Sequence record: OP870147.1
Strand: one strand, 5' to 3'
Source: Escherichia phage vB_Eco_F31
DNA length: 64,000 nt
Positions within the stretch are counted from its first letter, which is position 1. Every line of letters begins with the position of its first letter. The position numbers were made by a program, and so were the translations under genes. Below are positions 48,656-50,752 of this stretch, one piece after another. The notes beneath the pieces are model-generated. The model was not told the origin of the DNA and did not search any database. It saw only the letters and a program-made list of their open reading frames with translations.

Positions 48656-50074
48656 TTATGGATATGTATAGATGATACCAGTTTCCAAAGCAGTTTTATG
48701 GATGATGTATCCATTACGTGATTCTTGAACATCAACTTCTGGATAATCTTTCATCATCTTCTGAAGAGTGTAACGATGCAGGTAGTATTTACTATCTGGA
48801 TCTTCAGTTTTCCAATCTTTACCTTCTTCAGTCATTTTTTGGATTTCATCCATAACCCACCATCCGCACCAGATGTAAGCTGAAGTACGATGTGGAAGAG
48901 GATGAACATAAGGTAATTCACCTTCTGGTTCTGGAGCAACTTTATCGGTTACCTGAACTTGACCTTCTGCTGTAATAGTTTTGCTATCGTAATCAGTTGC
49001 AGTAATAGTTGCAGTAACTTCAATAGTTTGACTTCCAATAGATGAGGTATCAACGGTATATACATTAGTTGACCCTTCTACAGGAGAAGAATCTTTCTTC
49101 CATGAATACTCAATTTGCGCTTCTTCTGGAGCATCAGTGACATTAGCGGTAAATGTAGCCGAAGCATCTTGCTGAACGTTAATAGAAGGAGGAGTCAATG
49201 TAACCCGTGGATTCATTGTCTTCTTATTAACCGTTAATGATACTTCATTCGAAGTAACTTCCTTTGCATCATAATCTGTCGCGGTTACTTGGGCTACACA
49301 CTTAATTCTTTTTACTCCACTTGTAGTCGGAGTATAGCTAAATGTAGAGTTAGTTTCTCCACCAACCTGTGAATCATCTACATACCACTGATACGTAGCA
49401 GACGCTCCAACCGGTTGAGAAGCTAAGGCAGCAGTAAATTGAACTGGGGTTCCAATTACTCCGGCTGAAGGACTATTGGGAGTTACTGCCAACGTAGTTG
49501 TCTGTGTCTTTTTATTAACAGTCAGTGACACTTCATTAGAAGTAACGCTTAGTGCGTCATAATCTGTTGCGGTTACTTGGGCTACACATTTAATTTTTTT
49601 AACTCCGCTTGTGGTAGGAGTGTAATTGAATGTAGCAGAAGTTGCTTCGCCAACAGGAGAATCATCTACATACCATTGATAAGTAGCGTTTGCGCCTGAT
49701 GGCTGCGAAGCTAAAGCGGCGGTAAATTCAATAGCTGTTCCTATTACTCCAGCGTCAGGGCTATTAGGAGTTACAGCTAAGGTAGTCGTTTGTGTCTTGT
49801 TTTGAACTGTGATAGTTGTAGTAGCTTCTGCTGTTTCAGCTTCAGCGTCTGGAACTGTATTTGTTGCAACTACTTTAATAGTCTTTTGACCGGCAGGTCC
49901 TTTTAGTACATAACTAAAAGTTGCTTCAGCTCCATCTTGTGGAACATCATCCACAGACCAAGCATATGTAATAGGTCCATCTCCAGTTTGACCACTGGGT
50001 GTAGCAGTAAACTGCTTAGTCTCATCTATAACTCCAGTAGGTGTTTTAGGAGTTATATCAACTGTAAAAGCCAT
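48656..50074 (-). CDS. hoc: Hoc outer capsid decoration protein with four Ig-like domains
   Basis: 472 aa; N- and C-terminal segments match T4 Hoc pattern; internal 96-aa unit duplicated in tandem. Confidence 0.9.
   Translation of the reverse strand: MAFTVDITPKTPTGVIDETKQFTATPSGQTGDGPITYAWSVDDVPQDGAEATFSYVLKGPAGQKTIKVVATNTVPDAEAETAEATTTITVQNKTQTTTLAVTPNSPDAGVIGTAIEFTAALASQPSGANATYQWYVDDSPVGEATSATFNYTPTTSGVKKIKCVAQVTATDYDALSVTSNEVSLTVNKKTQTTTLAVTPNSPSAGVIGTPVQFTAALASQPVGASATYQWYVDDSQVGGETNSTFSYTPTTSGVKRIKCVAQVTATDYDAKEVTSNEVSLTVNKKTMNPRVTLTPPSINVQQDASATFTANVTDAPEEAQIEYSWKKDSSPVEGSTNVYTVDTSSIGSQTIEVTATITATDYDSKTITAEGQVQVTDKVAPEPEGELPYVHPLPHRTSAYIWCGWWVMDEIQKMTEEGKDWKTEDPDSKYYLHRYTLQKMMKDYPEVDVQESRNGYIIHKTALETGIIYTYP
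49223..49798. repeat. diverged in-frame tandem duplication (2 x 288 bp) inside hoc encoding two Ig-like domains
   Basis: Protein units KTQTTTLAVTPNSP...SLTVNK repeated with about 84% amino-acid identity. Confidence 0.8.
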
Positions 50075-50083
50075 AACTTATCC

Positions 50084-50752
50084 TTATTTTAATGTTATGA
50101 AAGAAGAATTACGAGTTTCACGAATTAGAACTGATCCATCGCGATTAATATAATAAATTAAGCTAAATAATGTTTGGTGAGCAGAAGCATGCACAAAACT
50201 AGTTGGGCGAGATTTCCAATCTGGGGTTTCGGCTATCCATTGATAAATCCACCAAGGAACAGTAACATATCCTGGGCCTTTGCCTAATTTAATGAGTGTA
50301 GGACTAAAATTTTCAGGCAGAACAAATTTTACTTCTTTATTTACCTCTGGTTCAGGCTCTTTTTCGGATTCAACAATCTGAGTAATTGCTTCTTCGAATT
50401 TATCATGGTCGAATTCTTTTTCTTGTTCGACAACTTCTAATACTTCAACTTGTTCTGTTGGAGAATCAAACAACAGAATAGCTTCTTCTTTAACTTCTTC
50501 GTTGGTGAAATTAACACCGTCCACATCATCTGCGGCAGTAATTAAATCGGTGATAGATAATCCATCAGTTTCAGGTAATGGTTCATCAGCCAGTGCGTTA
50601 AGAGCTTCTTCGATATCAATAACAATATTATCGAATGATTTTGTTTTCTTAACACTAATGCCAAATTGTTCCGCATATTCAAACAGTTTAGCTTTGGCTT
50701 CCTTTTTATCAGAAAGAGCACGTAACTCTTCAATATAGTCTTTATCGATCAT
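50084..50752 (-). CDS. inh: Inh inhibitor of prohead protease
   Basis: 222 aa; position between hoc and uvsW as in T4. Confidence 0.8.
   Translation of the reverse strand: MIDKDYIEELRALSDKKEAKAKLFEYAEQFGISVKKTKSFDNIVIDIEEALNALADEPLPETDGLSITDLITAADDVDGVNFTNEEVKEEAILLFDSPTEQVEVLEVVEQEKEFDHDKFEEAITQIVESEKEPEPEVNKEVKFVLPENFSPTLIKLGKGPGYVTVPWWIYQWIAETPDWKSRPTSFVHASAHQTLFSLIYYINRDGSVLIRETRNSSFITLK

Follow-up and report, generated by a model that had tools for sequence, protein, structure and literature searches.

A five-domain hoc allele with two long-diverged Ig-like units in a Mosigvirus genome

The hoc gene of Escherichia phage vB_Eco_F31 (accession no. OP870147.1; the 64,000-nucleotide stretch analysed is referred to below as the window) encodes a protein with two tandem copies of its second Ig-like domain. 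This gene is very probably an ordinary Mosigvirus hoc, represented by a five-domain allele (D1, D2-α, D2-β, D3 and a C-terminal anchor) in which the D2 pair consists of old paralogues; the number of D2 units forms a standing polymorphism and is most likely altered by recombination. An earlier note on this DNA, prepared from the nucleotide sequence, had described the repeat accurately; its further implications, that the architecture was novel and recently duplicated, were not upheld by comparison with related phages. In T4-type phages, Hoc (highly immunogenic outer capsid protein) occupies, as one copy, the centre of each gp23* hexamer of the mature head and is dispensable for growth.

The 472-aa ORF is hoc of a T4-type phage, as the earlier note had proposed, and no evidence against this identification was found; it was borne out by the match to T4 Hoc as well as by Pfam and Foldseek analyses. 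In a phmmer search the ORF matched T4 Hoc (5vf3 chain Z) with E = 2.9e-222. Residues 189–472 aligned with T4 Hoc residues 93–376 (573 bits), the last 94 residues being near-identical, and the capsid-binding domain at the C-terminus, characteristic of Hoc, was homologous to T4 residues ~281–376. The capsid-bound structure of T4 Hoc residues 283–376 has been solved (5vf3, 8t1x).

The genetic context agrees with this assignment. The gene order (rnlB-24.2-24.3-hoc-inh, with uvsW divergent; hoc is located downstream of inh and upstream of 24.3, 24.2 and rnlB) is consistent with the annotated neighbours in phages moskry, mar009P5 and T4, and the hoc gene of T4 (376 aa; structures 5vf3 and 8t1x; for an AlphaFold and cryo-EM model see PMC10385173) has the same genomic position. 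In the 24 kb around the gene, the window and Escherichia phage moskry (species Mosigvirus mar005p1) share 98.6% identity, and the window was therefore assigned to Mosigvirus. The same gene of moskry (98.6% identical) is annotated as encoding Hoc or a PKD domain protein. The coordinates of the gene, its domains and its flanking signals are presented in Table 1. Terminators are annotated at the site of the post-hoc hairpin in phages G2469, ATK47 and Kha5h.

Table 1. Features of the hoc region (positions are those of the window)
Feature	Position	Strand	Basis or remark
Coding sequence of hoc (472 aa and a stop codon)	48656..50074	-	ORF list; head outer capsid decoration protein
Domain 1 (D1), aa 1–92, single-copy Ig-like	49799..50074	-	aligns with T4 Hoc 1–92; AlphaFold2 all-beta, pLDDT ~86–94
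Repeat unit α, aa 93–188, first D2-type Ig-like domain	49511..49798	-	repeat finders, orthology
Repeat unit β, aa 189–284, second D2-type Ig-like domain	49223..49510	-	repeat finders, orthology; Pfam PKD 195–253
Domain 3 (D3), aa 285–378, single-copy Ig-like	48941..49222	-	Pfam Ig_3/I-set 289–373; aligns with T4 Hoc 189–282; pLDDT ~87–94
C-terminal capsid-binding domain, aa 379–472	48659..48940	-	near-identical to T4 Hoc 283–376
Ribosome-binding site (AAGGA) overlapping the stop codon of inh, 6 nt upstream of the hoc ATG	50081..50085	-	read from sequence
Strong GC-rich hairpin plus T-run, intrinsic terminator-like (AAGGGGCTTCGGCCCCTT), directly after the hoc stop codon	48634..48651	-	sequence

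Tandem Repeats Finder detected a 288-bp period in 2.0 copies at positions 49217–49798 (78% matches, score 705), and a gap-free repeat search returned two 288-nt copies with 77% identity. The in-frame 2 × 288-bp tandem repeat corresponds exactly to the second Ig-like domain, with the same boundaries as in the repeat and domain annotation of phage RB30, and the span 49223–49798 given in the earlier note equals codons 93–284 precisely. The two units, designated α and β, have 81 of 96 residues in common (84.4%, where about 84% had been estimated) and 76.7% identical DNA. A repeat of such length and identity is far above chance expectation. The flanking N-terminal domain and C-terminal region had been described as single copy, and D1, D3 and the C-terminal domain indeed show only 30–43% identity to the repeat units (D1 ~40%). 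Since T4 Hoc (376 aa) aligns to residues 1–111 and 189–472 of the window protein, the latter equals T4 Hoc plus exactly one 96-aa unit, which is the additional Ig-like domain recognized previously. Unit α is without a positional counterpart in T4, and β is the orthologue of T4 domain 2.

Pfam matches to PKD and Ig-type domains span the N-terminal 378 residues; they comprise PKD at residues 195–253 (36.6 bits; cut-off 23.5) as well as Ig_2, Ig_3 and I-set. An AlphaFold2 model, built with 32 homologues, predicted four consecutive all-beta domains within residues 1–378 (pLDDT 84–96), with the same strand pattern in α and β; the confidence of the C-terminal domain was below 50, as expected when it is modelled off the capsid. 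Foldseek retrieved 4–5 domain Ig or cadherin ectodomains as the top matches of this model; a further match was to RB49 Hoc (crystal structure 3shs; E = 1.3e-9). The N-terminal part is thus predicted to be the string of Ig-like (PKD/I-set type) beta-sandwich domains that characterizes Hoc.

The nucleotide sequences of the two units have diverged considerably. They differ at 67 of 288 positions, 45 of which are third codon positions, and 36 of the 51 differing codons are synonymous. The Nei-Gojobori method gave dS = 1.26, a value near saturation, dN = 0.11 and dN/dS = 0.09. Across nine two-unit phages (the window and eight others) the α–β dS ranges from 0.77 to 1.55 (dN/dS 0.08–0.20), and orthologous comparisons yielded values well under these (0.14–0.64 for α and 0.04–0.41 for β). 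The low dN/dS ratios indicate that both D2 copies are under purifying selection.

Comparison of individual units revealed that α has 85–94% DNA identity to the first units of moskry (94%), RB30 (87%), OZ035759 and UGKSEcP1 (87%), and that β has 89–99% identity to the second units of the same four phages. Unit β is furthermore 91% identical to the single D2 of T4 and 96–97% identical to those of the Mosigvirus phages AV110 and G2469. In relation to RB30, PP01, teqskov, sb2 and UGKSEcP1, each of the two units is nearer to its positional counterpart than to its own neighbour. Units α and β evidently separated before these hoc alleles diverged across Mosigvirus and Tequatrovirus.

Since the α–β dS is 1.26 and closer orthologues exist across the genus boundary, the duplication is not recent, contrary to what the earlier note implied. 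An in-situ tandem duplication of domain 2 that took place recently in this phage lineage would readily produce a repeat that is tandem, perfectly in frame and exactly one domain long. However, copies that are 23% diverged in DNA, the nearer orthologues of both α and β in phages of another genus, the occurrence of the same architecture in ~43% of sampled relatives and its annotation in the RB30 record (AY101183) speak against such an origin, which was rejected on the grounds of dS and cross-genus orthology and is extremely improbable. The suggestion that the repeat is an assembly artefact (a falsely duplicated segment) draws on nothing beyond the general risk associated with tandem repeats. Stutter cannot give copies that are only 77% identical, the reading frame is intact and the same structure is present in many independently sequenced genomes and metagenomes; the low identity of the copies and the number of independent genomes led us to dismiss this explanation altogether.

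The distribution of the five-domain form was examined by a megablast search of hoc against 50,697 phage records, 662 of which were matched. Sampling in even steps down this ranking provided 51 rows covering the whole gene, of which 22 represent the 1419-bp form and 29 the ~1131-bp form, an estimate that comes from these 51 rows only and from a database in which E. coli phage isolates are over-represented. Among the best 120 protein clusters from a 5.8-billion-protein database, 30 contain proteins of 468–472 aa, 82 of 376–378 aa and 8 of 568–570 aa. Scans of IMG/VR and metagenomes yielded only a handful of close relatives, so the prevalence figures were drawn from GenBank phages and from the protein database.

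The architecture had also been recorded previously. The RB30 record (AY101183) contains a repeat_region inside hoc with a note on an intragenic repeat leading to an additional immunoglobulin-like domain, and a repeat_region is also marked within hoc in the moskry record. A search of the accessible literature found no paper describing RB30 Hoc, the prior description being the GenBank annotation itself. According to a structural study of Hoc, the string of Ig-like domains varies among homologues and comprises as many as 10 (PMC10385173), and a three-domain variant has been functionally characterized (PMC11853027). The five-domain Hoc is a known, common, old and widespread allele, present in approximately four in ten related T4-type phages; being widespread in relatives and already annotated in RB30, it is an ordinary form. 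The novelty implied by the earlier note is therefore lost, and the note itself had specified that the form would be unremarkable if it proved to be common in close relatives, as was found. As a discovery the extra Ig-like domain carries little weight: the decoration protein is well studied, and this allele of it is common and already catalogued.

The closest described counterpart is Hoc of RB30 (AAM52483, 472 aa), which has the length, the five-domain layout and the position of the 2 × 288-bp repeat found in the window (nucleotide identity 87% for α, 90% for β and ~91% for the whole gene), although RB30 belongs to Tequatrovirus and the window to Mosigvirus. Both units are also arranged as in the window in moskry and other isolates of Mosigvirus mar005p1 (98.6% identity over the gene and over 24 kb). 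Phages UGKSEcP1, UGKSEcP2 and YUEEL01 encode a six-domain Hoc (568–570 aa) with three D2-type units, the first of which is α-type, as in the window, and the third (γ) only 75–84% identical to α and β. Three D2-type units were also identified in a metagenome contig (L032).

Genomes with at least 98.3% identity to the window across 24 kb fall into two groups: both units are present in moskry, vB_EQ1, G53 and WFbE185, whereas 288 bp are missing from AV110, FL18, APCEc01, G2469 and mar005P1 isolates (LR0273xx); G2469, AV110 and APCEc01 thus contain one unit only, unlike the window. Because near-identical genomes differ by these 288 bp, the one-/two-unit polymorphism segregates within one species. 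The number of D2 units (1, 2 or 3) is a standing polymorphism of both Mosigvirus and Tequatrovirus. In the scheme we favour, co-infecting phages would most likely exchange, gain or lose such units through homologous or unequal recombination.

For a detailed comparison, D2 units were extracted from 33 hoc genes, and 23 consensus sites separating α from β were defined (at the protein level there are 4 such sites, too few for chimera mapping). At the 23 sites, 13 of 13 first units of multi-unit genes are α-type and 11 of 11 second units of two-unit genes are β-type; leave-one-out controls were clean, with the units of two-unit genes assigned as α then β. An identity matrix likewise showed positional orthology between the units of the window and the corresponding ones in other five-domain alleles (α first, β second). 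Single-unit genes (n = 20) are heterogeneous at the diagnostic sites: (i) nearly pure α in RB14, ATK47 and loci L006, L034 and L036, (ii) nearly pure β in RB68, AV110, G2469, JS09 and locus L033, and (iii) α/β mosaics in HY03, T6, T4, T2, Kha5h and loci L004, L035 and L037. A segment-wise nearest-α/nearest-β test with leave-one-out controls, for which T6 and T2 were set aside and 18 indel-free single-unit genes were used, confirmed the mosaics and revealed 7 α-to-β versus 4 β-to-α switches. The single D2 unit of T4 is mostly β-like, and is α-like in the first 48 nt (0 mismatches to α versus 4 to β) and in the last segment; its nucleotides 49–240 match β. Identical runs of 20 nt and 17 nt are shared by α and β.

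Since single-unit genes carry α, β or mosaic units, it seems that homologous recombination reshuffles the number of D2 units, a mechanism deduced from the mosaic patterns only. These patterns fit frequent exchange between one- and two-unit alleles combined with unequal crossing-over between paralogous units. The view that all single-unit genes are α-to-β deletion chimeras, which an early inspection of the diagnostic sites seemed to support, was abandoned after the switches had been counted: with four β-to-α switches against seven in the opposite direction, a simple model of repeated deletions from an ancestor with two units leaves part of the pattern unexplained. Gene conversion between α and β, proposed on the basis of “b” states within the α unit of moskry, was also discarded, since sites that are in a derived state in the α unit of the window score in this manner automatically and the reasoning was circular.

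Two histories of the α–β pair were considered. The first assumes an ancient, single duplication of D2 in the ancestor shared by hoc alleles of the T4/Mosigvirus type, with the 376-aa forms (including T4) resulting from losses by unequal recombination and the 568-aa forms from gains; we give it slightly less than an even chance. It accounts for an α–β divergence greater than every orthologous divergence, for single units that are pure α, pure β or α-to-β chimeras with differing switch points, and for the T4 unit, with its change from α-like to β-like after the first 48 nt. The 20- and 17-nt identical runs could support the recombination required, and a D2/D3 hybrid found in metagenomic contig L042 is a clear deletion between paralogous units. 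However, the β-to-α chimeras (Kha5h and L035; the 4 versus 7 switches) require extra exchanges, and, with D1 physically attached to the 5′ end of a single unit and D3 to its 3′ end, the observed polarity could also be imitated by ordinary allelic recombination. Moreover, the tree is unrooted, with no outgroup containing D2-type units; more distant Hoc lineages expand units of the D3 type.

The second history assumes that two old D2 alleles were joined once at a domain boundary by an illegitimate unequal crossover and subsequently spread by recombination. The existence of pure-α and pure-β single-unit genes together with mosaics of both polarities is what recombining alleles predict, and the α-then-β order, fixed in all 13 multi-unit genes, is what one founding event predicts, but a single ancient duplication predicts this order equally well. 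In addition, two allelic classes would have to persist at dS ~1.2 though D1 and D3 are far less diverged (89–100% nucleotide identity between phages). We regard this history as a real possibility but lean against it. A more far-reaching proposal, in which the two-unit 472-aa form is ancestral, the 376-aa Hoc of T4 is a deletion chimera and D2 copy number (1–3) acts within species as a fast, recombination-driven length switch selected for fibre reach or for avidity towards mucus glycans, is in our opinion unlikely. What remains of mild interest is that the four-domain Hoc of T4 may be a deletion derivative and, as a related point, that phages otherwise near-identical differ in their D2 copy number.

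Variation in the number of Ig-like domains extends beyond these phages. PhiPNJ-9 encodes a three-domain Hoc (PMC11853027), and Hoc of Serratia phage Muldoon (1174 aa) contains 10 Ig domains (PMC10385173); both differ from the window in the count and types of their domains. Together they show that the number of Ig domains placed on a conserved C-terminal anchor varies widely. Distant Tevenvirinae Hoc proteins identified in IMG/VR and metagenomes (L007, L008, L038 and L040; 468–565 aa) have ~47–49% identity, and the lengths of distant homologues form a ladder of ~280, 370, 470 and 550–565 aa. Self-BLAST detected no recent internal repeats in the more distant Hoc proteins. Since their extra domains are of the D3 type and not of the D2 type, different lineages have expanded different Ig units.

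By homology with T4, one Hoc molecule would be anchored through its C-terminal domain at the centre of each hexamer of the major capsid protein, with the Ig-like domains projecting outward as a fibre. The T4 Hoc fibre measures 180 angstroms for four domains (PMC10385173). A fifth domain of ~96 aa should therefore extend the fibre by ~45 angstroms (about a quarter) and provide a second surface copy of D2, and altered adherence to mucus or cells as a consequence of the longer fibre is plausible. In PhiPNJ-9, the D2 motif S183-L184-T185 of Hoc has been reported as a MUC2-binding site (PMC11853027). The SLT motif is present in both units of the window (S183-L184-T185 in α and 279–281 in β), so the longer allele may contain two candidate MUC2-binding sites per fibre. 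The literature search yielded no published binding data for a five-domain Hoc. The longer form has some, if modest, practical bearing. Studies of Hoc in mucus adherence and as a display scaffold usually treat the 376-aa T4 protein as the norm, but ~40% of sequenced relatives encode the longer product, with two D2 surface copies including the SLT motif. Near-identical one- and two-unit pairs (moskry versus G2469 or AV110) offer convenient material for relating fibre length to adherence.

Several further observations were made on sequence variation within hoc. Of the 20 nucleotide differences between the window and moskry hoc genes, 16 are clustered within a 150-nt patch in the centre of α (approximately positions 49580–49729; gene nt 346–495), and the remainder of the gene is ~99.6% identical. 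It has the appearance of a short recombined tract or of a surface segment that is hypervariable. Phages with the same species name may also contain different hoc genes: that of OZ035759.1 (Mosigvirus mar005p1) has 1419 bp and that of LR027391.1 (vB_Eco_mar005P1 strain mar009P5) 1131 bp, their D1 regions being 96% and 87% identical to the window, respectively. Within the species Mosigvirus mar005p1, hoc is a mosaic hot spot.

Two metagenomic contigs encode short, three-domain Hoc proteins. In L042 (accession no. UMIC01022929.1; position 301–1149) the predicted protein of 283 aa contains a hybrid domain with a D2/β-like N-terminus and a D3-like C-terminus, and in L045 (accession no. OCHD01000040.1; position 301–1146) the 282-aa protein has the organization D1-β-Cterm, with D3 missing. 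These two proteins suggest domain loss via recombination between paralogous Ig units.

In phages T6 (NC_054907), T2 (PV648363) and SHFML-11 (KX130861), hoc is split into two or three CDSs or truncated, and the D2 units of T6 and T2 contain 1-nt length anomalies. This suggests either frameshifted (pseudogenized) genes or sequencing errors. Finally, the matches of E. coli O157 typing phage 6, PTE-Eco15 and ESh27 are confined to the final 276 nt of hoc, which encode the capsid-binding module (94–98% identity). Their Ig-domain part shows no match, an indication that Ig strings are exchanged as modules on a conserved C-terminal anchor.
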